This document shows, piece after piece, positions 9,020 to 47,200 of a DNA stretch of 64,000 bases. Each line of letters begins with the position of its first letter. Within the stretch, counting starts at the first letter, position 1. A program made the translations under genes and the position numbers. Under the pieces are notes generated by a model. It was given only the letters and a program-made list of their open reading frames with translations, did not search any database and was not told the DNA's origin. Origin of the DNA: Paramecium tetraurelia. Taxonomy: Eukaryota. The stretch lies in the NCBI GenBank assembly GCA_000165425.1, contig CT868074.1, positions 1 to 64,000 on the forward strand, written 5' to 3'.

Positions 9020-11232
9020 ATGTCAGATGTCAACTTATGCAAAAAGCATTCTTAAATGACTATCATTTAGACAAATTTACAGGAAGTTCCAGATGACCAG
9101 AAGTTTTGTATTTAATGCCTAATAACTGGGAAGATGAATTTAATTTTAATCGAGAATGCATAAGAATAATTAATAAAACACAAGAAGTTGCTTATCAACT
9201 AAAAAACAAAAGAAGGGTAGAATAATCTTGACTAATTGATAACACTCAAAGAAAATCTATTATTATTGAAATAACAGATTTCTACTTCAATTGATAATTA
9301 TATTGATTTTATTTCTTAATAAATCAAAATCTTGGAGGATTTCTAAACAATGTCTATTAATGAAATTTCAAGTTTATAAACTAAAGATATTAATTAATAT
9401 ATAAAATAATATTTAGATATCGAAAAATCTTAAATCAATTTTAAAGAAAATAAATAGTTCTTTTTAAAAAACTTAAGCCGTATTTCAAATAATTAAATTT
9501 CCGTTTAAAAATACTAAGAACTTTTAGAAAGAATCAGAATTGGATTTCAGAATTATTCTAATAAATAAATAAATGAATTAAATTCTATGGATTCTCACAT
9601 ATAAAGTTAATAAAGAATTAATTTAACATGTTAGGATCATATTGGTTCATAAATTGTAATGGTTGATATAAATGAAAACAAAAAAGCAAAATGCAGAATG
9701 AATTGTGTTGATTGTATTGCATAATATCCTACCAATTATATTACCATGAATTAATTTGAATAAAGTCTATTTAATTTCTAAATCTAATTGTTGAATTATT
9801 ATAATGAATATAAACTCAAAATTTTTCATAAAAAATAACAACTTAATCAACTAAGTTTAGATTTCAAATAAAAAACTACTAATATTCTTAAGTTTAAGAA
9901 TTACCAAATAGATAAAAGTACAGAGATATTTTATCATAAGATATCTTATTAAACTAGACTAAAATAATTTAATTGGTCTGCATTATCAATAGCAGAAGTT
10001 AATTAAATTGCAGAAGATATTAGTAACTCTAATTTTATGAATAAATATTAAGAATTATTGAGAACTGAATTTGAAAACTGGAAGGGAGCATTCAATACAG
10101 AATACTAAGAATTATTGATTAAAAATAATGAACTTGATGAAATGATTTAGTAAATTGATTAAAAAAGCAATCAAATTCCAAAAAAACCGTGTCGTCAATT
10201 ATAAATTTCAAATGGCTAGATTTAAATATAGTAAATAATTAAAAGATAATAACTAGAGTAACAAATTAATTAATCATTTATATATTCTAAATTAGATGAC
10301 CTTTCTATTTAATAAAATGAATATTGTTATGCAATTGCTATTAATTCTGATTGTTCATTGATTGCGGCTGGATCCAATTCATTGATTAGAGTCTTTGAAA
10401 TAGAAGGAAAAACAATCAGATTAATCTAAAACTTAGATGAACATAAGAATGCTATATTCACTTTAAATTTTATGAAAAGATGTAATTCAATTATTTCAGG
10501 AAGCTGTGATTAATCAATTAAAATATGGAATAGAAATTAATAATCAGAATGGCATTGTTAATAGACACTCCAAGGTCACACAAGTTTTATATATTGTTTG
10601 ATATTGAATCAAAACCAAGATTTAATTATATCAGGTAGCGATGATAAAACAATTAAATTTTGGATTAATTAAAATGGATGGAATTAATCATAAACAATAG
10701 CAGTTCACACTAGTAATGTATCAGGGTTGAGTTTGAATTGTACAGAAAAGCAATTAATTACATGTGGTGATGATAAATTAATTTTAATCATAGAGAATTC
10801 AGACACATTTTAAAGCAAATGGAATGTAGTATAACAAATAAAAGTGGAATAATCTGGATATAGATTATGCTTTATAAATGATAGTATCTTTGCTTTTTAA
10901 CCTAATTCATCAACATTTATGGAAATATATTAATCAGATAATCACACTAGAATGTATAATAAAATTAAGATTGTAGAAGTAAAAAATGGAAATAATTGTA
11001 ATTACCTATTTCCTTAATAATTTATTAAAAAAAACTAAATCCTTATAAATAAAAACGGAAATAAGATTAATTTTTTGTATGTCTCACCAAACAACTAAAT
11101 TAATCTAGTTTCATTTTTAGACTTTGGCACTAAAAGTATTTTTGGTTAAATTAGTGAAACTGGTGAATTTCTAGTTACTTGGGATGAAAGTCAAAAGAAA
11201 TACAGATTAGGAAGTTAAGTTCATTATAATGA
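9020..11232 (+). CDS. Two Cys/His knuckles (B-box-like) + coiled coil + WD40 repeats; 1-nt frameshift near the 3' end
   Basis: CKKH..FCIQC and CQDH..NCVDC. WD40 motifs LDEHKNAIFTLNF..ISGSCDQSIKIW and LQGHTSFIYCL..ISGSDDKTIKFW. Span is 2213 nt, one base short of a codon multiple; adding one A at ~11193 restores the C-terminus seen in the 37173-39326 paralog. Confidence 0.85.
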
Positions 11233-12502
11233 ATAAATATATACATGCATAATTAGATAATAAATTTTTATTGACTTAAAGTATTAACGATATTAAGAAA
11301 TTATTATTATTAACTTTTTCCCATTAAATTCTAAGTTTTCCCAAAGAAATTCATTATACATAGAGGATCTAATATCAAAATTATATAAAAAATAAAAATA
11401 TTTATGTCAAGAAAATGATATATTTATAATATTGTACCTGACTATATCAGAATTAAATTTACAATAATAATTTGTAAATAGGTAAAGCAAATATTTAATA
11501 AACTAGTTTATTGATTAAATTTTCTTAGGATGAGTTAATAAATTTACTCCTAGCTAAAAATATTTAACATAATTGAGGGCTTAGTTTCGAAAATTATGTA
11601 AATTTATGAGATGATTTACTTACCTTAAAGGAAGAATGAGTATGGAGAATATTATTTAATTATTCTTGTTCAGTTTTATGATTCTAAACGAAGAAACTTG
11701 TGAAATATAATTATAGCATCAAAAAATTAATTAATTCCTAATTTTATCCTATTTATAGATTTAAATGTAAACTTGATATTTTTAACATAAAATTACTTCT
11801 AAAGTAATTTCTTATAAATAGTAATCCATTTTTACAAATTAATAATACCCGTAACTATCTTAAACTAATTATTTTGGCTACTCCATAAGAAATCATACGA
11901 ATAAATTAATAATAAATTTCATAGCACACTTGCTCTCAAAACAGAAATTGTTGCCATTCTAAAGAAATAAGTTTAAATTCTCAAACTAAGTTAATTACTT
12001 GTTTTTTGAACTTTCAACTCTATTAAATCTTTTTGTCTGATTACTTATTACTTATTATTTGGTTTTATCCTTGAATTGATTTCTTGACAATAACAACTTC
12101 TCACAATGAAGTTTTAATGACATGAACTATGATTTGCTTAATTGGGTAAAAAAAATAATTGTTTCAGGCACTTACATTAACTCAAAAGTCTTTTTTTTAT
12201 TTATAATTCTATCTTTCAATTCTCGTTACTGAAGTTAACTTGAACGCATTTAATCCATAATCTGAATGGCTCATGAATTTAAACTTTGGCAAAATTATTT
12301 TAATTTAAATTAATTATGATTATTTTAATCTAATTATAATAGCTGTTGCGAAGGTGAGTAATAATATTTTCAATTTCAATAATGCATAACTTGAAAATAC
12401 TTAAAGGTAATAATTAACAAGATAAAAACTATTATTACATAAAATGTAAAATTTTTTTTTGAGTGTATTTATAAATAATGAAAAATCCTTTAATTTTATT
12501 CA

Positions 12503-15868: not shown

Positions 15869-17970
15869 ATGAATGATTATAATTATATAATTTAAATTTT
15901 AAATTATTATTAATTATAATTCTATTTGAGAGTATAGTTATTTTTTTCTTCAATTGAATAATCTATCCATGTCAATAAACAATTCCCTTAATAGATTGAA
16001 ATAACTAAGGATTCATCCATTTTCGCATTTGGGGTTAAAGACTAGATGCTAAAATTTTATTAAATGAAAAACTTGAAAATGATCTCATAAAATTTTGTTC
16101 AATCAACTTGGATTTATCAACTAGATTTTGCTAAACGATCAAATTAATTAATAACAACATTTGAGAAAAATAGAAAAGATACCATCTAATTCTATTCAAT
16201 AGTTAATTTAAACTGTTGTAAGAGACTCTATGAAATTCGAATAAATTTGCTTTATTCAATAAAACTTAGTTATGATGAAAATTTAATCATAATTGGAGGA
16301 TCTGATTCAATTGATTTATTTAAAAATAAATAAGCAGTATGGTAAAAAACTTAATCAATAGAATTGCCAAATTGTTATGCGAAGGATTTAGATATAAATT
16401 AAGAATCCTCTATTTTAATAACTCTATCTGAGGAGTCAAAAAAAATATTTATACTTAATCAATCAGGCTTTAAATGGGAAATAGTTTAGGAAATAAAAAA
16501 TAAGGATTTTGGGAGAAAACTGTGTTTTATTACTAATGAATCATTCGTTGTGACTTTTTAATTTAACGGTATCCTTTTTTATTAATTCAACACTACAGAC
16601 TTAAAATTTTAAATGACTAAATAGATCTTAATTTAGAAATATTCATTAGAGGAATGCAAATTCTTAAAGTTTATTCAATCATAATAATTACTCTTACTTT
16701 AATATGGTTGTTATTGCAACTTCATTCAATTTAAAGACAAAGAATTAAATACAGTTGAATATAAGTGCAATATCGAATAGGGATCCATTAGACTAGTTTA
16801 AATCAGTGATGATGGAAATTATTTAGTTACAGTTAATCGGGATAATCAACTTGATTTAAGAAGATAAACTTATCCGAATTTCAATTTTAATCTTGTTCAT
16901 TCTTTTCCTTAAATTAATTAACCAACAGGAATGGTAACTAATCACGATGCATCAATATTGGTACTAACTTATAAAGGATAATTTCAAGTATTAAAGAAGG
17001 ATTGTTAACAATTTAATGTAATTTAAATAACAGATTTGCAAGATTTAAATTGCTCTTGCTTATATTTTATGAAAAACTCAAATCAATTTATAATAGGTAG
17101 CATAGATGATGAAATAACAATTTGGCTTTGGAATTCAATCGAATAGCAATATAAACAATAAACCAAAATAATTGGCCCATCATTTTTCATTATTATGAAT
17201 CCGATCGAGGATTTATTAATTTTTGCGAAAGATCGGTATTTAACTTTTTGGGAAAAGAAGTAGGATGGATTTAGCATGGTTTAGATATTAAGGAAATCTG
17301 AATATGTGCATTCTTAGTTAAGTATAAATGAATCTGGAACAAAACTATGTGCAGTTTAATATGATTGCTCTATTGTTATTATTATTTAAGAAGTTAATTG
17401 GAAATTGAAAAGAAAATGGATGTTTCATTCTAAAATTAAAACAGATGCTATTGGAATCTAATCTGCACTTCTTACAGAGACAAAACTCTTGATAAAATAA
17501 AAGAACATATCACTTTTAGATCTATATGAACTTAACAATGATAATAATTTGCTTATTAAAATTAAATAAACTTAATTAATTTAGAATATAGTTGATGATC
17601 AAATTTAATTTTTGCAAAGTTTATTTCATAAAATAATGATGTGAGTAAGATTTATGATAATTTTCAGAAAAGATAATTGCAATTTAACAAGTTAAAATCG
17701 ATTTTAGTGATTTAAAATAATAATGAAATCTACCTAGCTGAATATGATCAATGTAGTAATATANNNNNNNNNNNNNNNNNNNNNNNNNNNNNNNNNNNNN
17801 NNNNNNNNNNNNNNNNNNNNNNNNNNNNNNNNNNNNNNNNNNNNNNNNNNNNNNNNNNNNNNNNNNNNNNNNNNNNNNNNNNNNNNNNNNNNNNNNNNNN
17901 NNNNNNNNNNNNNACATATTACAATGAGAAAAACCAATTAAATATTTTTTAAATTCTTACTTAATCAAAT
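15869..17970 (+). CDS. Divergent tandem WD40/beta-propeller protein (3' end approximate; spans gap)
   Basis: Long code-6 frame from ATG 15869. ISDDGNYLVTV and FMKNSNQFIIGSIDDEITIWLW. Probable A-run frameshift at ~17631. After the gap it reads TYYNEKNQLNIFKF. Confidence 0.7.
17764..17913. other. Assembly gap (150 N)
   Basis: N run. Confidence 1.
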
Positions 17971-25000: not shown

Positions 25001-28000
25001 TGTAATAATATTTTTGATATTCTTAGAATATGCTGGAAAATTATCAATATATGATCTTTAAATAACTTAAGTGGAACAATTTTCAATGACTGAAAAAAGA
25101 GAATGCCTACCAATGAATTCAGTATTTTTTTAGTAATTAGATTGTCCCCTCAAATTGACTCAATTAAATACTTAAATTACAGAACATATTAATAATTAAT
25201 AAATTTTAAATCAATTAATTTGTAATTAAGCTAAAATTTTTAAGGATCCCTCATTTACATTTAGTTTAATTGAAATTGAATAAATTAGTGTTGTGCACAA
25301 ATTAAAAATTGAGAAAATTGATATTAGAGGTGCAGAATGTACAAAATGTTAATTTGGTTTGATTAGAATTGCTGAAATCGAACAATTAGATACAGAAAAT
25401 ATTAAGCTTTCTTAAATTTTGATAAAAAATAGTAACTGTGGAAGGAATGGTTGTCTTTCAATATCTAAAAATAAAAATGACTTACTTATTTAAAACCCTG
25501 CACTAAATTATAGAATGTTGTAATAACACAATTACGAAAAACTTTTAAATAACATGAAATATTAGTTGATTATAAAATAAAGTTAATTTCTCAATAACTC
25601 TGCATCCTATGGAGGTCCACTTTTGATAATTGGAATTAATGCTATAATAAAAGATTGCATTTTTAAAAATAATGTTGCAGATTTTGGAGGTGCAATTTAT
25701 TATTCATCTGAGAAAGAAGAACTCTATATAGTGGATTCAAAAATTATTGAAAATAAAGCTGAAATTGCAGGAGGTATTTATCTAAGTTCTTAATCACTCC
25801 AGTTAACAAAGTAGTTAGATTTATAATTGGATTCTAACAATTCGACATTATATGGATCCAATGCTTTGCCGGGGGGAGCCCNNNNNNNNNNNNNNNNNNN
25901 NNNNNNNNNNNNNNNNNNNNNNNNNNNNNNNNNNNNNNNNNNNNNNNNNNNNNNNNNNNNNNNNNNNNNNNNNNNNNNNNNNNNNNNNNNNNNNNNNNNN
26001 NNNNNNNNNNNNNNNNNNNNNNNNNNNNNNNTAAAGCAATTGTTGAACAAATAATTATTAATCCATATAAGATTTTAGGTTCCTCTTCATTAAAGTATCA
26101 ATTAATATTACCTTCTGGAATAGCAATAACCAGTTACAGATACTTTGATCCAATCAAATCAGAGTTTATCCCTTATAATCTTACATTCAGGATCATTGCT
26201 TTAGATAAGTTTAAGGAATAAATTATGGGTTTGCCAGGATCTTATTGTACTTTATAACCAAAAGCCTTTAATTTAAGTTCTTAAAGAGAATAGTATAATG
26301 TCTAATATAGTCTATCCTAATATGATGTTGTATTTAACGAGACTACAGGGGATTATAATTTGGATAATCTAATCATTTACTTTAATCCTACTTATGAGTA
26401 GGATATTGCTCTTCGATTATCTATTTAATGCAATAGTGTTTCAGTTCCTTAATATAAAGAAAGTCCGCCGTTTTAAATTTATAATTATGTAAAAAATTAT
26501 AAATTATTTGTTGATATTCGGACATTTCCTTGTTAATTAGGAGAATTCTTAAATCAAACTTCTGGGGGATGTGTTCTATGCGACAGCTTTTAGAATTAAT
26601 ACTAAGTAACTTGGGCAGCGTAAAATTGTAGTTATAAAGATGATTCAAAAATTAAATCATTAGAATCAAGTATGATAGAACTAAGGGAACATTATTGGAG
26701 AGCATACTATTATAGTTAAACTATTGAACATTGTTATCATTTGGTGGAGAATTGTAAAGGCGGTTGGAGACCAGGAGATGAATCATGCATATAAGGACAC
26801 ATTGGAGCATTATGCGAATAGTGTGATTTATATGATTCTAGAGTGAGTGGATCTTACTCTGTAAGTTCCGCCTATTCATGTGGAAGTTGTGATTTAATAG
26901 CTTATAATGTAATGACGATAATATTTGTGAGCCCAGTGAGTAGCACGATAGAAATGATTGAAGAATTTGTAAAAGGTTTAAGCTTGAAAGCTTTTGGAGT
27001 TAGAGTAGCAATAAAAGAAGCTTAAACGGCTATTCTAATCAAAGTATTCACAAATTATCTTCAAATTATTTCGACCATTTCTACTTTTTAATTGCAAGTT
27101 CCAATTGGGATAGCTTCAGTTGTCAACACTGTTGGTAATCCTATTGAATCACTTGCTTATTCATTAGATTGCTTTTTAGCTTCGATCACAGATATTTTGA
27201 TAATATACTTCAGAATAATTTGGAGCCTGATTATGACTTCTACTTATATAACAGTTATTTTTAGTTTATTTGGAATTGCAATAATTATAAAGCAAATAAA
27301 GTTCAACTTTTCTTTTATTTCTACATCTTTGATATATTTATTCATATTTTTGTAGCCAAATTTGGTAGGAGGTATCGTTTCTTTATTATCTTACAGAAAG
27401 ATATCAGATGAATATTGGATTTAAGGGAATGTAGCCTATAGATACGACACAATTTTACATGCTAAATGGGTGATCACATTTTGCTTACCCTTATTATTCA
27501 CCTTTGGATGTATACTTCCTTGCTTTTTGTGGTATGGTGTCTATAAAAATAAGGACCACTTAGATTTTTCATCTGTAAGAAAGACTTGGGGATATTTGTA
27601 TAATGAATATCGGATTCATGCTTATTTTTGGGAAACCTTAAAGATAATGCAAAAAGAAATCATTATTATTGTTTTGGCCTATTATGATGATCATGTCCCA
27701 ATAAAAGCATCCTTAGTATTTCTTGTTTTATTTGGTTATACTTTTATAGCAATCAAACAGAAACCATACATGACTGGATAATTAAATCTAATTGACACCT
27801 AATCAACAGTCATTTGTGCCGTATCCATTATTTTAGCTAGTTCTATATACACAGCACAATAATAATAGCTGTATGAAATTGTATGGCCTTTTTATCTCAT
27901 AATTGGCTTTCTTAATGGCTTTTATATTCTTCGAATGTTAATATAGATTCTATTTGCTTATTTCAACAAGCTTAATGATAAAATAGATATTTTAAAAGAA

Positions 28001-29598: not shown

Positions 29599-30389
29599 AC
29601 TTTTTTTTTTTTTATATACATAAATTAAATAAAACTAAAATATTAGTGAATTATAAAGATAATTATAAGGAATCAAAATGTATTAGAGTATTTGGGATAC
29701 ATAAACACAGTACTCTATCGAAGACTCTTATAATCTACCCAATAACTTTGCTTCCAATTACATAAATTTATCAAAAACTATATAAAATGTAAGTAAAATA
29801 TGTATTTAAAAATAAAAATGCACTTGAAAATACATTTGCTTAAAAATAAAATTCAAAATTAGCAAATACATCATTACTTATCAGAGTGGAGAATAAAATA
29901 TATGACTATAAATGGGAGCTTAACATTTCCTAAGTTAGACTTTTAATAAAGTCAACTTATAAGAGAACCCCAAAATTATGACTTCAAGCAGCTCTTCAAA
30001 TCTGCCTATACAGAGCATCCTTATTGAGAAAGACATCATTTTAGAACTAATATATTTGTGATGCTTAGTTGGAATGATCGATACTCCTCTCACATTTCAA
30101 GATCTATATCAAACCTAATACAACAAATTTTTAACAAAGTTTCTAGTTGAAGAGATTAAGCATATCAAAATGCCTTTTAAATTTTGTTTGATTTAGAATA
30201 AATTACTCAATCTTGTACTATTATTAAACTGTATTTTGTGTTATTGGATTTACTGAAGAGGATAACATTAGTAAGTTGAATTAATCTACTCTCTTAATTG
30301 TTTGAAAAACTTATTATAATTTAAATGACTTTTAGTTCTTAAATCATCATTAAATTAAATCGGTTAATCTTTTTATAAATGTATATTGT

Positions 30390-33300
30390 TCATTAATCAT
30401 ATTAAATTTCATAGACTTTGAATTTGGGGTTTGGTTGTCCAATCCATGTCACTAAATACTTTCCATTCTTAGAGATATTAAAGACTTTTGTATTTTCATT
30501 GCAATTTATGGAATTCTTTGGAATATTCTATAATTATAGACTAAATTGTGTAATAAAAAATATCTTTTAAGGATTTTTAATAATGAATAATTACCTCATT
30601 TCATTATAAACCAATTCGTAAGGGCTATTGCAAATCTTTTAGTGGCTATTAATGTCAGATCTTAAGTTATGGCTATAGAAGTTTTCATTATTCTTTTTGA
30701 TGAATTCTTCTATTTTTCCATTAGAAGTAAAAGTAATTATTTTGTCATTAGATTAAAAAAAAGCACTTAAGATTCTCGAACCTGAAGCATCAATTGACTA
30801 TGTGAAATTCCATAATCCTCTCTAATTTTTTGTCCAAATTATAATTTGATCATCTTCATCACATGATACCATAGTATCATGCGATTTACTTAAGCTTGCA
30901 CAATTTACTTATTTATTATGTTTTAACAAATTTTATATTTCTTCAACTATGTTTTCTTGCTAAATTATTTTGTAGATCCCTATTTTTCCTGTTGAACTAC
31001 AACAAATCAATTAGTCTTCTGCCTCATTCATAATTAGGTATGTAATCTTGCTTGAATTTAATTTTTTGGTTAATTTCTGCTACCAACCTTAATTGTCATC
31101 GCTCAAGTTCCAACATATTAAAAAAGAGTCATCACTTTCAGATACTAAATAATTCCGCTTTTTGCTTATAATTATACTTCTTATATTTTGTTCATGTCCT
31201 TTAAGTACAATTTTATTATCAATCATCTTATCCTATTGGAAATCCCATACTTTTAGATTTTAACCTTGACCAGCAATTATTTTAGAATTATCAAAATTAA
31301 AAGTTAAAACTTAACATAATTCTTGTTATTCGAATTCATATAATAATTTATGGTTAATCTCTTGATATTTTGGAGGGATATCCAAACTGTCGTTGAATTT
31401 CTAAATTAGATTTTAGAATTGTTATTATTCTTATTTAAGTTTCATTTAAAACTATTTAACAAATAAAGCAATTTACTCTTACATTTCTTTTTTTTCATTT
31501 TCAATCAGAAAATTCTCAGTTGCATTCATATAATCAATCTCTTTTAATAGACTAAAATAGTTTAGTTATTCTATTTAATTCTTGATTCTTTCTTCAAACT
31601 TACAGACATTTAATTGAAATTGCTCTAAAAAAGATTATAAATTTTTCGATTCTTTCTTCAAATTTTCAATCATTGAATTAAAATCATCTAAGTAGTATGA
31701 CATAAGACCCTAAATTTAATCTCTAGCTTTCATTTTTCTCTTAAAAATTTATTCTTTTCGAAATTCCAATTTCTCACAACATATTTTATCCATTTCATTT
31801 AGACATTGATCACATCCTAATTTTTCTTAACCTTTCAACTACTCATCACAAAAGACATAAGTTGCTTCTACATTGTGCTTTAAGCATAAAATCTATTATT
31901 ATTTTTCTGTCATATACATTTTTCTATCATCTAAAACAATATGTTGGATATTAGATAAAGCAGGTAAAACAGATGATGCAACGAATCTATTTTCATTTGT
32001 TTCAACTGGCAGGTTTTTAATAAAGCCATAATATTAAATAGAATCTTAGGTAATTTCTTGTTAATAAGATTCGTCATTTTTATAAAAATTGTTCAATTTT
32101 TATGCAATCAGATTCTATTATTAATTCATGATAGATTGTTGTAACAACTTCTTTTGTTTTTCATCTTAAGCTTAATTCATTTAACAATCGCCTTATTCTT
32201 TCAAATCTTTTTCAATCTCGTAAATGCATTATTCGTTTTACTTTGTAAGTAATTTAAGATTCTCTAAATTCAAGCAATCACTATTTTCTTATTCCCTTTC
32301 TGATATGTGCAATTAAGAATTATTTCCAATTGAATTACATTTCTAACTCTCTTTCATTTGCACTATCATTTACTTTGATCCTTTTATCCCTTGCCTAAAT
32401 ATTCTAGCAAACCCTAATTCTTTTAATCTACTACTTTAAGGTAAAAATGACATGATCACATGTATCCCTCCATTCTGTTCTAATTGTGCATTTATTTTTG
32501 TAATTATTAATAAAATCAATTGATATGTTGCAATATTTGTACTATAAGGTTCAATTTCAATTTTAGAGATCTTATCATTTTCTGTATATTTGATGATCTT
32601 TTAAGACCTAGATATTTCTCTATATATTTTATTCATTTCACCTTCACTTTAAGCAATGATCAACACAGCTTTATTATTTTATTTTTATTCTTATACTGCA
32701 TTAATAATATTATTAAACCATTCATGTTCAGATTTCATTGTTATTCCTTGTAATTCATCTATGGGATTTTGTGAATGAGCAGAAATTTATACACAGTCAA
32801 GATTGTACTTCTTTGCTAAAAAACTTTACTCTTCTGATCCTAAAAATCCTGTTAATCCCAACAATCTTTCTTAATAAAATAAAATATTTTATTAAAACTT
32901 AGTTTTAATTTGAATATATGAATCCGTTGAAGTGCCTACAGGAAATAAAGAATCTATCTCATCATTCAAAATAATATAGCCTTATACTCCATATTTATTA
33001 CTCTTTTGATGGCTCAAAACATCTCCATAAATGACTTAATTTTAATAACTAGAGCTCATTTATTCAGAATGCCCAATTTAGTCATTGATATTATAGGAAA
33101 CTGAAACATTACATAAATTATAAAATTATGTTAATTCTTTGGATTTTTGAATAGCCAAAGAATTTGAACCGATTATGATATAGACATTCTTTAGCTTTTT
33201 CTTTACTAATAGTATTGCTAGGAGGGCTGTAATCAAAGTTTTCCCTTCTCCAGGAGAAATTTCTGCTATTCTTCCTTTCGACCCATGCTCATATAGTTCT

Positions 33301-33860
33301 AGGACAACTAATAGTTAAGAGGGTTGAAGAACTTATTGAAATTGTTTTTTAACCAAATTCCAGAGAAGAATTGTGTCTTCTAACTCAATAGAGGAAGATG
33401 AAGAAAAATTCTATGTTTCATTAAATTACTAATCTTGTAATAGATGTAAAATAGTCTTTTTAATCTAGTTGATTGAATTTTCATTTTTACTTGTTTTCAG
33501 AGATTCCAACTTGTTTAAATAGGTAATATAATCATCATCCATATAAATTAGCTGTAAAAATTCAGCATTATTGTAAAAGTCAAATCCAAAGGCATGTTAA
33601 ATAATTGGAGAAAGGTGTTGATTTTTTTCAATGTACTCAATAATTGATTGTGAGTCTTTCTCATTTATTTTTTTTTCTTTGGTCAAATTTTTCACAAAGT
33701 TAATTTACTCTATTTATGTTAATACTTTGTTTTACTCTTTAGGTAAGAAATTTTATTGCATATCTACTTATGATAAATATGTGAGTTTTTTTGTTAATTA
33801 TTAATTTATACCAAAATGAATGATAGAATAATAAATATTTATTTTAATTGAACTAATCAT
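30390..33860 (-). CDS. SecA-like DEAD ATPase fused to Cys/His knuckle, coiled coil and WD40 repeats (~1156 aa, intronless)
   Basis: One continuous frame of 3471 nt. GRIAEISPGEGKTL (Walker A at 33237-33251), IILNDEIDS, FQQNILFYQERLLGLTG, NGGIHVI..RQGIKGS; then CLKH..LGCDQC, a coiled coil, and WD40 (LKVWD, LKGHEQNIRSI, GKYLVTW). Start could alternatively be ATG 33761 or 33911. Confidence 0.85.
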
Positions 33861-33943
33861 ATATAAATTATTTGATTGTATTTTTTTTGGCACAACTTTA
33901 GTTGTCACCATAATTTTGTTGTTGATATATTTTAAATATAATC

Positions 33944-35031
33944 TCATGATAATTTAGGAAATTCCTACTCATTATTTGTATCCACCTTCTGTTATTGTTT
34001 TTAGACAACTTTTGGAACAACGCCCTTTTGAACAAACTCAGTATCAGGTGCATTTTCATAAAATGATCTTTTCTCCTTAATCAATTCAATAGTTTAGTCA
34101 ATTTAAGTTGAATAAAATGGAACAGCCACTTTAATTTGATCGAAATATTGGAAAGTTGTTAAATCATGTTACAGGAATTATTCCTAAAAATAAGAATCAT
34201 TATAAATACCCCTTCCTTCTTTTCAAACTTTGTGAAGTAAGCAATCAAACTATCGCACAACTCTAAAATAAATAATACAATAATTTACTTATTAAGTGTT
34301 CTCTTAGTGTTTCATTATTTCCTTCATAACCTGACTCCTCCGTTATTTATTCTTCTTCATCTTCGATTTCTTGAAGGTTATTAGGATCATCTATTGCTAT
34401 AACATTGAAATGTCTTTCAATCTTTTTGGTATGCTTTTCTTCTGTCTTTTTGATCCTATCAATCTTTTAGAGGATATAGTCTCTGTGTTTTTAAAGATCT
34501 TCTGGATTCTCAAATTGATCCTTCATTTTAATGTAGGCTTAGATAAGGACTAAAACTCTTTAAGCAACTCCAAATTAGAATTGAATCTTCTCTCTCTCTT
34601 TGTTAATTATGAATTTTAAATTTTTTTGATTTTGTGTTATGTTATCTTTTGTTTACTATAACTCTTTCTTGATTTGATGGTACTTGGCGTGATCTTCAGA
34701 ATATTTTGCTAGCATCTATCTCAGAACTTGCAATTTTGAAGCAGCAAATTCAAATTCATCATGAACTAATTTAGTGCTGCCTAAACTTAATTGTTTTTAA
34801 GAGTCTGAAGCTTCTTAAAATAGCAATTCTACTTGTTGCTAATGAAATAGATGAAAAATTTACTAAAGCCTATCCAAACAGATCAATTTCCTTTTGTATA
34901 GCAGCTGTCCACTCCTTGCTTTTTAATTCATCAAGAGTCTTGTTTGGATGAATTTCTGGATGTGCCAATGCTACTTTTGAGGGCTTCTTCTATTTTTGAC
35001 TAGTTTTTGGCTGTTGAATATAATGATTCAT
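33944..35031 (-). CDS. Bfr1/proton-pump-interactor (PPI1)-like coiled-coil protein
   Basis: Three introns (25, 26, 26 nt) give a 336-aa frame. C-terminus ELCDSLIAYF..HDLTTFQYFDQIKVAVPFYSTQIDQTIELIKEKRSFY..EFPKLS resembles Bfr1/PPI1. The middle looks divergent. Confidence 0.55.
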
Positions 35032-37172: not shown

Positions 37173-39326
37173 TCATAAATTGTACTTTCTAACTTGTATT
37201 TCTTTTTATTTATCATCCCAAGTAATTAAATATTCACCATCATTGCTTAATGTACCAAATAGCTTTTTGGAATGAAATTCAATAGAAAAATCAAGGGTTA
37301 ATTCTGAATTAGGATGCATACTTAAAAAATTTAGGCTTGACCCGTTTTTGTTTACTAACAACTATTTTTATTTTATGAATTATTAAGGGAATAGACTATC
37401 ACAATCCTCTCCATTTTAAACTGAAACTTCTTTAGTCTTAGTGTATTATCCATTATTCATATCATAAATATATAATTTATTAAAATTTCTTGGTTAGAAA
37501 CAAAATGCACTGTTATTTATGAAACAAACTCTTATTCCAAATTACTCATTCATAATTGTTTAACAAAGATTCCAAGTATCATTTTACAATTTAAAAACCA
37601 ATATTTTATTATCCCTTCCGCTTGAAACTAATATATTTGACTACTCATTTAGACATAAGCCATAAACAATATTGGTATGATCTCTGATAGTTTATTTACA
37701 CATCCATAGTTTTTCTAGTGCCCAGATTTTAATAGTATTATCTGCACTTCCAGATATTATAAGGTCTTCTTTTCTCGAGTATATCAGACAAAATATACTA
37801 CTCTAATGGAAATCTAAATTTTATACGCAAGCCCAATAATTTGTTTTTTTTCTTTCCCAAATTTTAATAGATTAATCTTAACTCCCAGAAATAAAATTAT
37901 TAGATTTTTTAAAAAAAGTCAAACAATAAACATCACCTGAATGTTAATTAATGATTGTTTGAATAGGTATTAATTATCCATAATTCAATTAGAATATCTA
38001 TATTCTCTTCCTACATGCAGCAATTACAAGTGAGGAATCTTTATTAATAGAAAGTGCATAACAAGTCTCACATTGTTTGATTGAGCATTATTACAATAGT
38101 TAATATTTAACAACCTTTTTTTATTCTTAGTTTGTAATTATTTATTATGTTTCTCTCTTGCTAACTTCAGCTTTCCTCTCATTTGTGTTAATTAGTTCTT
38201 ATTCCAAAAGTTAATCACCAGACTTTAATCTCTTTAAGATATCTTAACAATTTATGATTAAACAATCAAAATTTTTTTTCTGAATTTCCTCTAAACTTTA
38301 CAAGTCCTCTTTTAATTTATCATCTACCTATTCTATGTAATTTGGTTAACTCAGTATGTTTACAATTGTACTCATTCCTTATAAGTTGTCAGCTGACCAT
38401 ATTTCTTAAGTTGTCTTTTTTTTTTATCTAATATTATCTATTTAAATATTAAATTTCTGGTTCTACTCTCTTTTGTGTTGCTATATCAATTATGAGATTT
38501 TATTTTCGAAATCCTCTAGTGATTTGTTTTTGGCTTCTTATTATTGAATAGTCTATTCAATTTTCATATCAAAGCTTTTTACTAGATTTGAATAGTAGAT
38601 TGACTTTAACTCAAGAACTCTTTCAATTCTTGTAAATTTGATTTAATGTTGCTCAACACAAGACAAGCAAACCAATCTGCTTTGTATTGTACTCTTCTCA
38701 TTTAAGTCTGCCATAACTATGCTGCTTTTATGTATTTTACATTATAAATCGATTATATTTTGTTTTACCAGATTTGATTATGCTAACTTTGGAGGTACGA
38801 TATTTTAATCCTAACTTAATTTATTTATTTTTTCTTGTAATTTGTTGAAGAATTCTTTTGAGTCTAGTATACTCAGTTAGGTCTAGAGATTCTTTTTTAT
38901 CTCTGAAAGGTTAGGAGTATCACTTGCAAGTTGTTTACATGATTTACTAAATAATTGAGAGTCAGCCAAAGAGAGTTTCTTTATTGTATGAGAAAACTTC
39001 GCCATTTAGGTTTGGAATAACCCCCCGTATTGATCAATAGTCTCTATATATTTGTTAAACGAAGTCTTAAATTGGTTTTCAAACGAAAACAGATCTTATT
39101 TTATCTCCTCTAAAATTGACATACTGTTTTAATATTCTAACTCTTTTTCCTCCTGCATTTCGGTTTATTGTCTCTTTAATTCTAATTGCCTGTCCTCTAT
39201 CAATATCAAATTATTGTCCATTTGGACTATGCAATTTTTGCACAGATTTCTTTAATTTGGATCAGACTAATTTGGCCTCTAGAATATAACTGATTCGTTG
39301 TGAATAGGACACTTCTTTCTCTCCAT
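37173..39326 (-). CDS. Two Cys/His knuckles + coiled coil + WD40 repeats, 717 aa (paralog of 9020-11232)
   Basis: CPIH..LCKNC and CKIH..VCLSC; ISGSQDQSIKIW, ISGSADNTIKIW; ends GTLSNDGEYLITWDDKQKEIQVRKYNL. Intronless, 2154 nt. Confidence 0.9.
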
Positions 39327-39621: not shown

Positions 39622-41193
39622 TCAATTTATTTGATATATTTTAAATTATTTTGTTTCGTAACTCCAAATCACCAAAAAATTGCCATCATTGGTGATTGTT
39701 CCATAATTAAATCTGGAATGAAAATGAATGGGTTCTCCATAAATTCTTAAAGTATTTGTGTTATCTCGCTTTAGAATGTATACACTTTTATTATGCTTTT
39801 GAATTAAAATCATTTTTTTGTTATTGAATATAGATGGGAATAGTTGAGTTCCATCTTATTTATTCTATTATTGCAATCTAACTTTTAATTCAGGAGCCTC
39901 AATCAATCGTCCATTCTCAATCATAAATATATGTAGAATTCCTTAGTTATCTGATTAGTAAGTAAAAGTCGAATTTGAGATGAAGCAAATTCTGTTTCCA
40001 CAATCTTTCTAAATTCTATCAATTGTACATTAGTAGGACCAATTGTTAGGAGATTGCTTAGACCAAAGAATAATTTTATTATCTTAAGCGCTTGAGATTA
40101 AAAAGGTTGAATCGTTGTTAACACAAATGAATTTGACATTCGATTGGTGCATCTCTAATGATTATTTGAATGATATAGTGTTTTGTTCAATGTTTAGGTT
40201 CCATAACTTAATTTTTGAATCATGACTTAATATAAGTTGATCTTCAGCTGGTGTTAAGATCAAGTTTTAAATATCTCGTTTACCTGTGTAAAGTACTTAA
40301 TTCTGTTGCCATTTATTTAAGCTAACTTGATTCCAACATATAATCTTTTCATCTAATCCCCCAGAGACTAACCAATTCTACCTTTTGCTGAATGTCAAAC
40401 ATTAAACAAAATCAGAATGCCCTTCTAATATTATTCCAGAATCAACCAACTTCTTATCTTAAAAATCCCAAATTTTGATGTTCTCCTCACATCCAGCAGC
40501 CATGATTGAATCGGAATAATTAAATGCTATGGCCCAACAAGATTTCTATTGCTTGATTTCTTAAACTTACGTCTGACCATCATTCTATTTTTTATAATTA
40601 TTAATTTATGTAGAAATTTGGTTGAATATTGTATCAAACTCACTTTATACATCCCAATCCTTTATTATCGTTTATAATGTCAAGGTTATATTGCTGATTT
40701 TTGATGAATAAGAGCGATTCAATTATTAAATCTTATTAGAATCGCTTAGAAACTATTCTTTTAAAATAAAATTCGGAGATTTATTAAGAGTGTCCAGTTC
40801 TTTGATTAAATCGCAATTATTATATTATTCTACCAAACTATCCAATTCACCTTGGAATTAATCAAATTTTGAATTTAAGGAGGAAATTAATTCATAAACT
40901 TTAGATTAGAGAGATTGAGTTTTTTCTTTCATTTTTGCTAGCATCTAATTCATCAAACTAACTAAACTCAAGATCTATTATTATGATTAGCTCTTTAAGT
41001 CCTCCACCCTCTCCCTTGCTTCTGAAATTGACATTGCAAAACAAAGCCCTCTCGAATTCACAATGCATTCATGGCACATCAGTCTTTCATTTCCATGGCA
41101 TCCCTCTTCAACCTTAATTTGAATGATTTGATTTCCTGAATGTTGAGCGCAAAATGAATTAGAAATACCAACATTAATTTTGGATTAGATCAT
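39622..41193 (-). CDS. Cys/His knuckle + coiled coil + WD40 repeats, 523 aa
   Basis: CAQH..RLMCHEC; CWAIAFN..AAGCEENIKIWD; LEGHSDFVQCLTF; GTITNDGNFLVIW. Intronless, 1572 nt. Confidence 0.9.
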
Positions 41194-41273
41194 AATTAAT
41201 ATTTCTATAAATGTAGAAAAATATTCTAATCTATTACGCATTTATGTAAAATAGATTTAAACTTAAATCATAT

Positions 41274-44200
41274 TCAAATTATCAAAAATGCTGTTATCAA
41301 CATAGATATGATCATGGCTATCTTCGTTTCACCTGGATTTTAAGGTGTGGCTCCCTAAAAACAGGCTTCACAATGATTAGTATTGGAATTCCAAGTGTGT
41401 GTTTAGACTGATTTGATAAAACATGCTTTAGATTCTGAAATGGTCTTAGGGTCGCTGGTAGAGCAGTTTCCATTTTGTAACAAGCATATCGTATATTTAG
41501 TACCATCAAAGCTTGGCACTGGATTACAGTTTAAGCCATTTGAAAAAGTTTGGCAAGTTTAATCAACACATGTATTTTAATTCCAATAACAAGATGGATT
41601 GGTATTGCATGTATGCTCATCCTATTCTGCATCTGCACATGAAGAGAATGTTTTACAAGAACCAATTTGAGAGTTTTTTTCATTGGGTTTGAATGCACAA
41701 ATGGTTTATTAGTCACTTTCAATACCTCCTCCTTAACAAGCTGTAAGAGTATTGTAAGTACTGCACTTTGCTTTTGGAATACAATTGGTACCATTTGAAA
41801 CACATTATTTACCAGGTATGAATGTCAAGCAGTTTTGATTACTTTGTTCATGATAAATATCCTGACATTCTTTGACTCTACAAGATTACACTGTACTATT
41901 TCCTTTAATTGGGAGACCAAAAATGCATAGACCATCAGTTCCTTAGTAACAAGAAGATTATCTATAGGAGGAGCAAGTTGATTATTATATGCAAGTAGTT
42001 CCATTGGTAGTGCATGAATTATTTGCTTTGTAACATTCAAGATGGCTTTAATATTGATAATCTTCACAAGTTTTTACTTTGCAATTTGTATCTGTTTAAT
42101 CCCAAGTACAAGGGCCTTCCTTTGAAACATTCAAACATGCATTGGCTGTTTTATACATGGAACATTGTTAAACTACTTCAACGCATTGATACCCGTCAGA
42201 CACACACTCTTAATGATATAATCTACAAATATTATTATCACTAGATTTTAAATCTGAGCAGGCTTTGAAGGATTAGCATTTTTCATTCCATCCGCATTAT
42301 TTGTCTAATCCGTAGACACAGGAATCAAGTTTCTCATATTGAGCACAAAAAGTAATTGGTATACAATTTGATCCATTAGTTGTACAATATTTCGATATGT
42401 TTTGGCATTCTTAAAAGGTTTTGAGTTTGGCATCTTCACATTTAGAATAATTAATGCATGCATTCTAAACCCACAAACAAGGTCCCCTTTTGGAGTGAAT
42501 ACAGGAAATTTAGCTAATATATTCATCACATGAATCTCCAGAGATACAATTAATACCATTTGATAGACATCCATTCAATTATGACTCACACTCAGCAACA
42601 GTTTTACCTTAAAAATCAATACATTTGATGTCTCTACAACCATTTTCTTTGCGATCCCAAATGCATTTTCGTTCTCCATAAGCATAAAGACAGATCTAAA
42701 CTACTTTATAGGTAGAACACCAGCCAAAGGTAATACAGCCCATCCCACTGGTTGTGCATTTCGGATTTAATTAATGACATACACTATGAGATGAAATATC
42801 ATGAGGTAAATCCTCACAATTTTAAGAACGACATTGAGCAGGGTTATCAGTGAATGCACAAATTTCATTTTTTACTTTTGAATTGAAACAACTAGTTTAG
42901 CTAACCTCTTTGATTTAATCACAGCTTTCAAATTATTAATTACAAAAATGAGTCCATGAACATGATGCATTACCCTCACAAGCACTTTAAGTAATTATAT
43001 TATCGCATTGTTTAATAGATGTACATCCATACCCAGTAGTGTAACATGATGGATGATATTTCTAACATTCTATATCAGTTTTCAATGTGTTAGGTGCATC
43101 ATTACAGACCCGTGTTGTGCAACTACTAGTTTTGAAATCATCCATGACTGTTGCTTTACATGGTCCATCAATGGCAATAGCGTTGGCACAACTAATATGA
43201 TTACCCTAGAATTAAGTGCATTGCAATCCATATTTAACACACTTTGATCCATCAAATATACAAGTGATTGAATCAAATCTCTAATTACATGATTAGTTAT
43301 CTACACCATTAATATCACTGCATTCCAATTTCCTACAGGATGTATTCACTCCACTACTAAAGCAAAGATCCTTGCCATAATTTCCTTTAAACTTTAAGCA
43401 AGCATCGTAATTTCCTTGATATTGTGCACATGAAGCTGATTCTTCAATACATCCTGCTCCTTTTGTTCGGCATCCTTTTAGAAAATATGAACACTCTTCA
43501 TCTGAAGTTGCAGTAGTGTTATCTGAACAAATTTTCACTTTACATTTGCTAGTTGATTGATTTGTTACATACCCAGAACAATACACATATTCCTTATCTT
43601 TCAACTATTTGAATTATTCACATTATATTTTAGTACCTCTATATGAAGTACAAGGTTCAGTATTTGGAATACATCCAAGTCCTCTGGTTACACACCCATG
43701 CATGAACTCATTGCATTCAGTGTCTGATTAGGCACTTATATTATCATAACAAATTCGATTTTCACATCTTCCACTAGTTTAACTTGGTTCATTAGATATA
43801 CATTTGTCAACTCCATTCGGGTCCAAGTAATTTCCACATAATTGCTTAGTTGTTCTTATCTAATTACAATCCTGACTCATATCAATACATTTGGTTCCAT
43901 CAGTTTTACAAGTAGATAGGTACTATTGACAATAGAAATCTGTGTAATATTAAACATCACTGCAACTTCTATTTGAACATCCAGTCCCATTCCATTTACA
44001 ATACACTCCACTTACATTTTGTACTTTTTCACACCATAGCTACTATTGCTCAGGATTATCTCCTATTGGCTAATACTAGGAGCATTGTTGTTTTTTAAAG
44101 CATTTTTAGTTGTAATAATAACATCCCTTACTATCATTTAAACAATCATTTATTCCTAAAATATCTTCACATACTTATGGTTTGCATTTTCTGATTTGGG

Positions 44201-47200
44201 TTCCATCTTTACTACAACGAATATTGTTTAATGATTTAACTAATAAGCATTGTGCATCTTCTTGACCTTATTATGGGCCCTTTTGGTTATCTGCATTACC
44301 ATCATATCCTGAACAACTTTTTTACGTCACACAATTATTGCCCCAAAGGTAAGTGCAACTTTATAGGGATTCATCTTACAATTGATTGCAAATTTCCAAT
44401 TTATTTACCACATTTTCAACATTATATGATTCACAAGTATTTACCTTGACACAATAATCACCTCCCATATATGTGCATGGAAAATTTTAATTTCTAACTT
44501 AACTACAAAAGTATTTAGGGTTTTCCTTTGAAACAAGTATTTGACTACAAGTATTCTAGTAATTATAACAAGTTCCTAACAAATAATAGCATGTGGTTTG
44601 GTTTACCATAGTGTTACAATCTAATTGAGATTATGGATTCACTGCGTCTGAGCATTTGGAATCCCTACAATAATTTTCAGTTCCATTATATTTGCATTAA
44701 AATCCTTTGAGATTCTTCTTAACTTAACAAAAATAATATTTATCAGCAATTCCCTTGGGAACTATGTAATTAAAACAAGACTTTTGAATAGATACACATC
44801 TATTTTAAGTGTCACTGAATTAATCATAAGTGCATTTGACGCTTCTATTCTTATTTTTGAACAATTCACAATAACTAATCTTTTCACTGATGGATGACCC
44901 AATTAGCTCCTGGGAAAATGGAACCTTCGAAACATTACTACAGTCATCTTGAGTAGTTATGCTACCAACTGCTATACATTTTCCAAGTAAAAATATACAA
45001 CCTTTGATATGATTATCACAATCACCTTGAGAGTGAGGTGATGGAATGTGTTCACAAGTTCCTGCTTTGCAATTGGTTCCATTATCACTAATGCATTGAG
45101 TAGTTCTTGTTTTATCAGTATGAACTAAGCAAAATGTATCGACATTCGTAGGTTGTTTATCCCAAAATTCTGGAATGGGATCAACTTAAACACATAAATT
45201 ATATGAACTTTCTACACATCCAGTCTTGGCTTAATTGAGAACGCAGTAGTTTTAACCATCTGAAGTTGAAATTAACATACTGTTACAAAAGAGGGATTTC
45301 AAAGAGTCAGAAGTTAACTCAATTGTGAAGAGTACATCATTACATGAAGAAACCGCATTGTAGCATCTTTTATTGTAATAGCCACATTTGTAACCGTATG
45401 CCTCACAGTCTTTGTGAGAAGTTGGATTGTAAATATCTGAACATTAAAGGATATCTTAACAGGTTAATCCATCTGTATATGTACAGGGTATATAGGGACC
45501 ATCTGACTTATTTGATAAATCCACGACTTTCAAACTCCTACAGAAATCCAATTTTTGATTATAGGTTAAAAGAGTAGGGATTGTGTAACTAGAGCAAACA
45601 TAAGCAGTAGTATAGCAACGAGAGTTCTTAGTTTTTTAGCATTGGCCTCCTTTCCATCCCAAGGTGTCATTGCATTATTTTGTATCTGTCGCACTGATTA
45701 TAGTTTCACAGGAATCTTAATAACTGCATTGGGAAAAATAAACAGTGTTGTAAGCGCATTATATTCCTTTAGTGTTTTTGAGTGATACACAGAACTTCCA
45801 CTTCTCTTCAAAGGTTAGTAGATCAAATGGAACCATATAATAAAAGCACTCCGTCAGAGATGCCAAACAAGATGAACCAGCCAACATACAAAATCCACTT
45901 CCGGTGGTTTTCCCTTCCTGAATGAATGAGGAACACCCAGAAATTTACCCATTTACAATTTGTTAGCAAGTCCTTATGGAGCAGAATTATCCTATGTCCC
46001 AGCCACAATACAATCCCATTCGATCTTTAATATTAGCACAATACTAGAATCTTTTTTAATCTGTGTTAGCAGTATTGGGGATTTGATAGCCAGTACAATC
46101 ATTAGCCATTATACAAGGAGTGCCTTTTAGATAAAATCTACAGGTGGATTTATAGTTTGTACATTCCTCAGGAGTGTTAGGACTCGCTATGTCTGAACAT
46201 TGTCTTTATTAACAATTTACTTTTCTGGTACATTACGTCTAAGACCATTAATTATTTATTTGAATTCCCCCATAATAGAGTTAACAAGTTCCATCAGTCC
46301 CAGATTAGTCAGAACATGTTACAGTAGTTTAATCCACACATCCTGTATTCTTTAATAAGCAGTCTTAACGAAATAGATTACAATCTGAGTTCTTCTATGC
46401 TATAGATTTATGATAACATTCTCTCTTCACACACTATCCTTTGGTTGAAGTGCCGAAACAATATTTTTTTGAATTTTGCCCAACTATGGCTTGTTCGCAA
46501 AATAGATCATTTCCATAATAAGATTCACAAGTAGCCTAATTAGGATCTACACACCCTTCTTTGCCATCATAAAGACAACCATTTAAAAACTCTAAGCATT
46601 GCTAATCATTTTCCATTTATTCTGCCACAGAACAAGATTTTACCATACAAAAAGATAGCATATTTGCATGTTTTATATTGTAACATTGGATAGTAGTGAA
46701 ATTCTACTGTGATCCATTTAAGTACCCAAAGAATTGAATACACTTGCTTTAATCGCCTTACATTTGAGAACAACTAGTTCCATATTTAACACATCCTCTT
46801 CCATTAGTAACACACCCTGGAAAGTAATCGTTGCATTCTTGATTAGTTGTCAACTCAACATTATCTTAACATTGTCTAGTAATGCAAGGGGAGTTATCAT
46901 CTGCACTTTCAACATTAGTACAATACCCTAGATATCCAAAACAGGTCTGTTTATTCCCATAGAGTTTGGAACAGTCATATTTATTAATGCATGAGTTTTT
47001 CATATCACTAATACAAATTGACATTTCATTTTTACAATTTATATCGTCTTTATATTACGATCCTATTAATTCATCACAAGTTAACTCTCTACATCCATTT
47101 GCTGTCCAAGTGCATTTTACTGACTCTAGTATTCCATTTAATACTTTCTTAGCCTTTGTATATCTACAAGTAACCTCACTCTTAAACTTAGAACAATCAG

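Follow-up and report, generated by a model that had tools for sequence, protein, structure and literature searches.

The window analyzed here, 64,000 nucleotides of Paramecium tetraurelia DNA (contig CT868074.1, positions 1 to 64,000), carries on its minus strand a gene, 30390..33761, in which a SecA-type ATPase module is fused in frame to a zinc knuckle, two long helices and a WD40 propeller. SecA is the textbook bacterial export motor, and the module found here lacks its clamp, the preprotein cross-linking domain (PPXD). This is a real, transcribed Paramecium gene with a two-part product. We are highly confident of the anatomy and the descent of the fusion protein, and only slightly less so that it is not a translocase. 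On balance, we favor the full statement that a clamp-less, SecA-derived module, which binds ATP and hydrolyzes it slowly or not at all, sits on a WD40 scaffold and does not translocate; the role of ATP-binding switch or adaptor is advanced more tentatively, as a reading of the sequence.

Anatomy of the fusion protein

Read with genetic code table 6, the minus strand contains a single open frame over 30390..33947 (1185 codons), in which 88 in-frame TAA/TAG codons are decoded as Q and the terminal TGA stands alone; the remaining five frames contain 14-65 TGA codons each across the same interval. The probable start codon is the ATG at 33761 (M63 of the long open reading frame [ORF]), which we prefer because it starts the 1123-amino-acid (aa) database model and its residue aligns with the first one of the P. 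octaurelia relative P0003. The end coordinate given in the original prediction, 33860, falls between the ATGs at 33761 and 33947, and the gene is now placed at 30390..33761. Residues are numbered in the 1123-aa product, hereafter the window protein, unless the long ORF is named. The claim of one intronless gene holds, with an uninterrupted frame, no in-frame intron-like GTA..TAG segment in the coding sequence (CDS) and no joint in the RNA reads. That an intron had been kept in frame where relatives carry the PPXD was considered and ruled out (0 GTA..TAG candidates and 0 RNA joints). The parts of the gene are listed below, with the two nucleotide-binding domains abbreviated NBD1 and NBD2 and the per-residue confidence of the AlphaFold2 models given as the predicted local distance difference test (pLDDT).

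30390..33761, minus strand: fusion-gene CDS of 1123 codons, closed by the TGA at 30390-30392; the ATG of the longest ORF is at 33947
33327..33761, minus strand: N-terminal helical region, residues 1-145; AlphaFold2 helices 16-141, pLDDT mostly 75-95; phmmer blocks to P0032 and P0004
32862..33326, minus strand: SecA-type NBD1, residues 146-300, with Q-motif Gln149, Walker A GEGKT and Walker B DEID; Pfam SecA_DEAD, invariant columns and SecA fold match
32898..32948, minus strand: 17-residue connector in place of the ~140-residue PPXD insert of relatives; AlphaFold2 confidence low at 277-279
32352..32861, minus strand: SecA-type NBD2, residues 301-470; motif III TGF instead of TGT, motif V changed to TYQLILL, three-Arg motif VI kept
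31887..32351, minus strand: helical-scaffold remnant with a single long helix (residues 513-562), then a Q/N-rich linker of low confidence
31803..31886, minus strand: CxxH...CxxC zinc knuckle (C626, H629, C650, C653), ligands invariant in 6/6 aligned family members
31332..31802, minus strand: two long helices (~68 and ~44 residues), presumed coiled coil; AlphaFold2 helices H43-110 and H127-170, pLDDT ~40-65
30393..31331, minus strand: seven-bladed WD40 beta-propeller; Pfam WD40 and propeller families, PDB WD40 matches, 28 AlphaFold2 strands, pLDDT ~80-90

Pfam recognizes SecA_DEAD in the window protein (E 1e-10; 41.8 bits against a cut-off of 24.6), with residues 145-308 of the long ORF lying on profile positions 21-172 of 290, as well as WD40 (42.3 bits against a cut-off of 27) and further propeller families. 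SecA_DEAD and DEAD are the only NTPase families found; NACHT and NB-ARC gave no Pfam match, and neither SecA_PP_bind (PF01043) nor SecA_SW was matched at E<=1. The NCBIfam SecA models reach 17.6 bits against cut-offs of at least 725. In a sequence search of the PDB with the N-terminal 498 residues, 15/15 matches are SecA, with query residues 162-240 aligned to 94-169 of Bacillus subtilis SecA and 287-471 to 355-543; ~139 B. subtilis residues between these blocks have no counterpart.

The predicted fold points the same way. The AlphaFold2 model of residues 1-638, built from a 44-sequence alignment, has a mean pLDDT of 76.3 and a predicted template modeling score (pTM) of 0.72, and both motor domains lie mostly above a pLDDT of 90. 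The 31 Foldseek matches in the PDB listed through rank 35 are without exception SecA or SecA2 (E 2.0e-20 to 3.5e-12); T4 UvsW, at rank 37, is the first protein of another kind, and superfamily 2 (SF2) helicases come after SecA. Model residues 86-542 align structurally onto SecA residues 15-619, a single long helix (513-562) aligns with the start of the scaffold, and the chain is unstructured past residue 569. As modeled, the N-terminal half comprises both NBDs and, from the scaffold, the first long helix, and the clamp is absent. The model of the C-terminal 501 residues (pLDDT 73.8) comes from a shallow 6-row alignment and contains, after a small knuckle, a pair of long helices (68 and 44 residues, modeled at low confidence) and 28 strands that form a seven-bladed propeller (pLDDT ~80-90).

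All motifs quoted in the original prediction were located, among 12/12 motif strings found in the fusion ORF, each on the minus strand:

33309-33326, minus strand: QPSQLL
33237-33269, minus strand: IAEISPGEGKT
33153-33185, minus strand: VYIIIGSNSLA
33024-33035, minus strand: VIYG
32949-32963, minus strand: DEIDS
32847-32897, minus strand: FQQNILFYQERLLGLTG
32508-32534, minus strand: IATYQLILL (motif V site)
32454-32471, minus strand: GGIHVI
32394-32417, minus strand: LGFARIFR (motif VI)
32376-32396, minus strand: RQGIKGS
31875-31886, minus strand: CLKH
31803-31817, minus strand: GCDQC

The gap from DEIDS to FQQN, estimated beforehand at about 17 residues, is exactly 17 (LFPVGTSTDSYIQIKTK). In a BLASTP comparison with P0005, a PPXD-bearing relative from P. 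sonneborni, window residues 180-345 align to 237-413 (46% identity) and 345-542 to 556-758 (38%); the ~143 unmatched P0005 residues between the blocks hold its SecA_PP_bind match (493-545). The spacing between Walker B and motif III was determined for 178 proteins, 166 of which have both motifs. It is 38-40 only in the window protein (38; present in two versions), P0003 and P. primaurelia P0004; it is 90 in P0063 and P0148, and 147-355 in the remaining 160, among them 14 canonical bacterial SecA proteins with a spacing of 165. P0063 and P0148 (Anopheles arabiensis model) likewise have no SecA_PP_bind match, so PPXD loss is not unique to the fusion; their short spacing may be a second real loss or an exon skipped in automatic eukaryotic/UniParc gene models. 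Thus, both the assignment of the N-terminal half to SecA, on SecA_DEAD and the Foldseek match to SecA/SecA2, and the absence of the PPXD, with no SecA_PP_bind match and ~140 residues fewer than in P0005 and B. subtilis SecA, agree with what had been proposed.

The same architecture occurs in P0003 (76% identity) and P0004 (51%), and database searches yielded the fusion in only these three proteins, all from Paramecium. Three oligo-dT RNA-seq runs labeled as the same species gave 118, 116 and 85 reads on 30100-34300, most of them on the upstream gene. Depth within the fusion gene is 0-2.5, with reads in the propeller, helix, linker and NBD parts and no joints; the first mate is on the plus strand in nearly all of them, and a few reads run opposite at 30664-30945 and 32920-33201. 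A contig from run X3 extends over 30363..32870 (2508 nt, 0 differences, word depth 31.7) and spans the propeller, the helices, the knuckle, the linker and NBD2; depth is 1.4-4.3 just past its 3' end and at most 4.7 further 5'. The contig would fit a 3'-biased cDNA ending ~27 nt beyond the stop codon. Four further sequencing runs contain 100% of the sampled words. That two adjacent genes or a mis-assembly were taken for a single ORF is extremely improbable. The thin RNA coverage, with no raw reads in 31933-32073, is what would speak for such an artifact; against it stand 1123 uninterrupted codons, the identical fusion in assemblies of two other species, the four runs just mentioned and the X3 contig, which bridges the 31900-32400 junction singled out for checking. 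The open frame, the bridging contig and the two other assemblies thus support a genuine single gene over an assembly artifact.

The upstream gene, seen within 33907-34300 on the minus strand, is transcribed ~10x above the fusion gene. A short Paramecium intron at ~34263-34286 (GTA...TAG) would account for loose read ends at 34262, and many molecules end near 34022. Position 33953 is T in the window and C in most RNA reads of the three runs (11/14, 14/19 and 12/15), which may be a strain difference or editing. In all three runs, some reads match only the 33 bases 33938-33970 and are unlike the window on both sides; they could come from a paralog or a micro-exon.

Descent of the two halves

A scan of 1.84 billion representative proteins returned 1223 relatives of the N-terminal half at E<=1e-3 and 593 at E<=1e-10. 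The best 150 representative matches include 148 proteins other than the window protein and P0004, of 403-4728 aa and mostly longer than 1000, and nearly all of these 148 align in two stretches that break at the 17-residue connector. In a Pfam scan of 17 relatives, SecA_DEAD is present in 16, spread over 342-453 residues (that is, with the insert inside), and SecA_PP_bind at E<=1e-4 in 10; the tails of the 17 include OTU, Ntox46 and TPR. The toxin-type tails of this giant family are OTU, Ntox46 and an HNH-like end. The nearest PPXD-bearing relatives are from Paramecium itself: P0005 (1668 aa), P0032/P0179 (P. pentaurelia and P. primaurelia, 1625 aa), and P0031 and P0033 (P. tetraurelia). The full-length Paramecium proteins are ~1000-1670 aa long (1021-1668 aa for P0005, P0031 and P0032). 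Homology of the window protein to these paralogs is detectable up to ~residue 523, and its N-terminal helical region (residues 1-145) is common to the Paramecium SecA-like paralogs only.

A quick maximum-likelihood (ML) tree was built from 47 rows, comprising the Paramecium members, P0006-P0008, P0034-P0069 and four canonical SecA proteins, and leaving out the fragment P0033, the duplicate P0002, and P0038 and P0058 (duplicated/partial NBD2 only). The Paramecium proteins form one clade inside the giant family (SH-like approximate likelihood ratio test [SH-aLRT], 99), in which the fused clade (100) is sister to the full-length clade (99). The fused stem measures 1.14 changes per site versus 0.32 for its sister, and canonical SecA is separated by branches of 2.81 and 0.51. 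A plastid or mitochondrial SecA was considered as a candidate and ruled out by the NCBIfam scores and the long branch to canonical SecA.

Among prokaryotes, scanned at one genome per species with a family-alignment query, 574/585 candidate stretches were confirmed as relatives; the same scan with P0005 as sole query found none. The best matches to the full-length Paramecium protein reach 29-39% identity and extend past NBD2 to ~residue 930. They are labeled Rickettsiaceae, Rickettsiales, Midichloriaceae, Candidatus Bandiella and Wolbachia; Legionellaceae, Legionellales, Tatlockia and Coxiellaceae; Cardinium and Chlamydiae; and also Saccharibacteria and Bacteroidota, although many of the contigs are metagenome bins, some of which may be mis-binned. 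Lower rows, at 24-29% identity, are ordinary SecA. Of note, a 5.7-kb contig (L011) labeled as a Methanobrevibacter metagenome-assembled genome carries a giant-family match with 36% identity to the Paramecium protein and may be a mis-binned eukaryotic or symbiont contig. Other eukaryotic members occur in rotifers, a hemichordate, a glomeromycete fungus, a nematode and mosquitoes. The N-terminal half thus most probably descends from PPXD-bearing Paramecium SecA-like proteins of this giant effector/toxin-type family, which never was a housekeeping or plastid translocase and which finds its closest bacterial counterparts in intracellular lineages (Rickettsiales, Legionellales, Chlamydiae). By comparing with canonical SecA alone, the original prediction had missed this parent.

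This ancestry brings in a quite unlikely explanation, namely, that the SecA-like half mimics giant effectors of intracellular bacteria or the host's own full-length paralogs, pairs with them or with their targets, and lets the C-terminal module signal or dispose of what is caught. The best bacterial matches of the parent family are symbionts and parasites of protists and invertebrates, its tails are of the toxin type, canonical SecA dimerizes (as PDB titles indicate), and the literature, in its accessible portions, describes SecA-like modules in effectors and giant toxins. However, PADLOC matched 0 families, and nothing ties the local WD40 family to immunity. A still more specific and slightly less probable version is a host "integrated decoy," in which a SecA-like module, captured by Paramecium from the giant effectors of its intracellular bacteria and with its clamp and hydrolysis coupling disabled, would be wired to the knuckle, coiled coil and WD40 parts. 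If true, the protein would bind such effectors or their host targets and trigger a response, and would represent a class of sensors based on an SF2 secretion motor, not on a STAND NTPase.

The C-terminal half has its relatives within the window. Residues 701-1181 of the long ORF align with the whole 549-aa product of a neighboring gene with no large gaps (BLASTP, 25% identity, E 1e-41), one of three local members of the family:

39622..41271, minus strand: 549-aa product with knuckle, helices and WD40, the closest relative in the window that has the C-terminal module as a stand-alone protein; ~6 kb from the fusion gene, on the same strand
37173..39326, minus strand: local family member, 717 aa, two knuckles; propeller match E 3e-13
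9020..11533, plus strand: local family member, 837-aa ORF, two knuckles; propeller match E 2e-14

All of the aligned family members (6/6) have the same four ligands in the knuckle (Cys, His, Cys, Cys), and the knuckle regions gave only chance-level Pfam matches, with no B-box at E<=10. Given the end-to-end match to the neighbor, a fusion with a member of a knuckle-coiled coil-WD40 family is well founded; the proposal that the donor was one of the local copies goes further than an identity of 25% can show. The SecA-like gene was probably cut between residues 523 and 626 and joined to an entire family member. A word-indexed search with the C-terminal module returned 1 weak match among shorter proteins and, among proteins of near length, only the three fused proteins and 4 weak WD40 matches; since it misses even the 25%-identical neighbor, this search says little about the size of the family.

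The WD40 gene cluster of the window consists of 9020-11533 (plus), 15869-17644 (plus), 37173-39326 (minus) and 39622-41271 (minus), all uninterrupted ORFs; 15869-17644 encodes a propeller only, and the other three have the knuckle-helices-WD40 layout. Adjoining the last of these genes is a 2476-aa Cys-rich ORF at 41274-48704 (minus), which has the surface antigen domain of Paramecium (PF01508, E 5.8e-67). This domain, a G+C content of 22-34% and the Paramecium proteins that head the database matches agree in pointing to the P. aurelia complex. Elsewhere in the window, a 1055-aa ORF at 3331-6498 (minus) has five DUF4215 Cys-rich repeats (E 7.4e-52) and a hydrophobic C-terminal half, and 56705-58258 (minus) encodes a hybrid histidine kinase with HisKA, HATPase_c and Response_reg. 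A hydrophobic ORF at 58098-59522 (minus) lies upstream of the kinase ORF and overlaps it; both probably belong to a single gene that a short intron or a frame change divides. Runs of N, marking scaffold gaps, occupy 14048-14087 (40), 17764-17913 (150) and 25882-26031 (150), and the last breaks the ORF at 25086-26675.

State of the motor and competing readings

The state of the motor was assessed in a 44-row alignment of 3 fused and 41 non-fused proteins. Walker A G171-E172-G173-K174, Walker B D267, E268 and D270, as well as G302 and G305, are invariant; R445, R453 and R456 of motif VI are R in 44/44 rows, the window protein included, and the Q-motif Gln149 is retained in the window protein. 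Five positions kept in the 41 non-fused rows are changed in all three fused proteins: T170, before the Walker A GEGKT (Pro, Pro and Ser); T306 of motif III (Phe, Tyr and Ser); and N413, G416 and G418 of motif V. A sixth, R417 of motif V, is R in 41/44 rows, including P0004; the exceptions, all Leu, are the window protein, P0003 and P0009, a bacterial SecA. The original prediction of a degenerate motif V alongside intact Walker A and B motifs is therefore correct, motif V being lost. Its claim of a degenerate motif VI is not, since the three invariant Arg are intact and the Phe of GFAR, correctly aligned at the time, is the norm across the giant SecA-like family.

Motifs III and V of SF2, SecA and DEAD-box proteins couple the gamma-phosphate and its hydrolysis to domain closure and substrate binding, and motif V of SecA contains an Arg reported to be essential for ATPase activity. 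The pattern in the fused proteins, a kept set of nucleotide contacts with lost coupling motifs, suggests that ATP is bound and turned over slowly or not at all. As far as sequence allows, the lack of a PPXD, two-helix finger, wing and membrane segment excludes a translocase role, since such a protein should be unable to hold a polypeptide in a clamp or to push it. A clamp-less NBD1-NBD2 pair might nevertheless hydrolyze ATP and act as an active motor, remodeling, unfolding or moving helicase-like on a substrate delivered by the WD40 part. The intact catalytic Glu and the three motif VI Arg would also fit a motor that still turns over ATP. We regard this as unlikely, because all three fused proteins have hydrophobic residues in place of motif V, the Thr of motif III is gone, and there is no PPXD, two-helix finger or SecA_SW match; the long fused stem also suggests relaxed or changed constraint.

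Some of these features could lead to the opposite conclusion, a pseudo-ATPase in which the SecA-derived half no longer binds nucleotide and is kept as a structural or docking domain for the WD40 protein. The five shared replacements and the sixth in two proteins, the Walker A Thr-to-Pro change, the stem of 1.14 against 0.32 in the sister clade and the low NCBIfam score all lean that way. Yet Q149, G171-E-G-K174, D267, E268, D270, R445, R453 and R456 are invariant, even in the 51%-identical P0004, which is hard to explain without a bound nucleotide; we consider a pseudo-ATPase rather unlikely, if less so than an active motor. Regional identities of the window protein to P0003 and P0004 are, respectively, 86% and 62% in NBD1, 82% and 60% in the propeller, 80% and 58% in the knuckle, 79% and 56% in NBD2, 76% and 44% in the N-terminal region, 67% and 39% in the linker, and 61% and 27% in the helices. 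NBD1 is thus the most conserved region of the fused protein, indicating that the motor is remodeled and not decaying.

In sum, the N-terminal half is a stripped SecA-type SF2 motor, in which the helical N-terminal region and both NBDs are followed by the first helix of the scaffold. In the fused branch, the clamp was removed (PPXD with its stems, ~140 residues), and all that comes after this helix in the parent, namely a TPR-like region, glycine-rich membrane segments and a tail, gave way to an entire unit of knuckle, coiled coil and seven-bladed WD40 propeller from a gene family with members in the same chromosomal neighborhood. Residues coupling the two motor domains to hydrolysis were lost (the motif III Thr and the motif V Asn, Gly and Gly in all three proteins, the motif V Arg in two) and the nucleotide-contacting set was retained (Gln149, Lys174, Asp267/Glu268 and Arg445/453/456). 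Under the reading that we favor, an ATP-binding module with slow or no hydrolysis, NBD1 and NBD2 would still bind ATP with little or no turnover, the nucleotide-dependent closure of the two lobes acting as a switch or as a stable fold; cytosolic partners would be recruited by the WD40 propeller and by the coiled coil, which probably dimerizes.

Several points weigh against this reading besides the residues that would suit a working motor. The replacement of the Walker A Thr by Pro (Ser in P0004) might weaken nucleotide binding. The coiled coil is modeled at low confidence, the tree topology comes from a quick ML search only, and P0003 is either an ortholog or a whole-genome-duplication duplicate. 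RNA depth is very low, with no raw reads in 31933-32073 and 33484-33765, and run X3 is only guessed to be RNA.

To our knowledge, all that is known of SecA-like modules outside the Sec pathway comes from surveys, by bioinformatics, of giant effectors and toxins in bacteria, and the literature consulted yielded no report of this SecA-like-WD40 fusion. Here, a eukaryote keeps such a module under constraint after losing the clamp that defines the translocase and joins it to a protein-interaction scaffold. This natural "minimal SecA motor" should be useful for learning what NBD1 and NBD2 do alone, and it offers a dated example of domain fusion after a probable gene transfer from bacterium to ciliate, as well as a possible handle on the conflict between Paramecium and its many intracellular bacteria. 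The gene is lineage specific and has no known phenotype, and its interest is moderate on that account.

Comparison with known systems

The fusion protein had been likened to NTPase-repeat sensors. The layout supports this, because STAND/NLR sensors (Apaf-1-like NB-ARC plus WD40) likewise have a helical N-terminal region, an NTPase and a C-terminal WD40 domain. The NTPase class does not: the window protein has an SF2 RecA-pair motor with no NACHT or NB-ARC and no PADLOC match. TRIM/RBCC-like proteins, in which a B-box zinc knuckle is followed by a long coiled coil that could dimerize and a C-terminal propeller, provide a comparison for the other half, with the same order of small knuckle, long coiled coil and propeller. 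Unlike them, the window protein has no RING, no Pfam B-box at E<=10 and a knuckle of only four ligands.

With canonical SecA (B. subtilis 3JV2, Escherichia coli 2FSG), the window protein shares the DEAD-like NBD1 with its Walker A and B motifs. It differs in lacking the PPXD, a SecA_SW (scaffold/wing) match, the motif III Thr and motif V, although it keeps the motif VI Arg, and only one long helix (513-562) is modeled where SecA has its scaffold. Moreover, it is eukaryotic, cytosolic looking and fused to WD40. SecA2 and other secondary bacterial SecA_DEAD proteins are described, in the accessible part of PMC4452313, as SecA paralogs in which SecA_SW is absent or fragmentary and which probably handle special substrates. 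According to the same text, they too have shed part of the canonical domain set; unlike the window protein, they are bacterial, lie near secretion genes and keep a working motor layout, and none is described there with WD40 or without a PPXD.

The closest comparison is with the giant SecA-like family. As far as the available portions of these reports go, related SecA-like ATPase modules are found in Amoebophilus effectors (PMC3482391), in giant actinobacterial toxins (PMC8195603), in the eukaryotic association module of phage WO (PMC5062602) and in giant genes of Omnitrophota (bioRxiv 10.1101/2023.11.21.568195). The window protein has lost what these parents still possess, the PPXD and motif V as well as a TPR-like region, glycine-rich membrane segments and enzymatic tails, and has the knuckle, coiled coil and WD40 parts in their stead. 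Together, NBDs that are 38-46% identical, a fused clade sister to the full-length Paramecium clade, and the family-specific GF.R (motif VI) and HVIMSFLP signatures mark this family as the direct evolutionary parent of the fusion protein.

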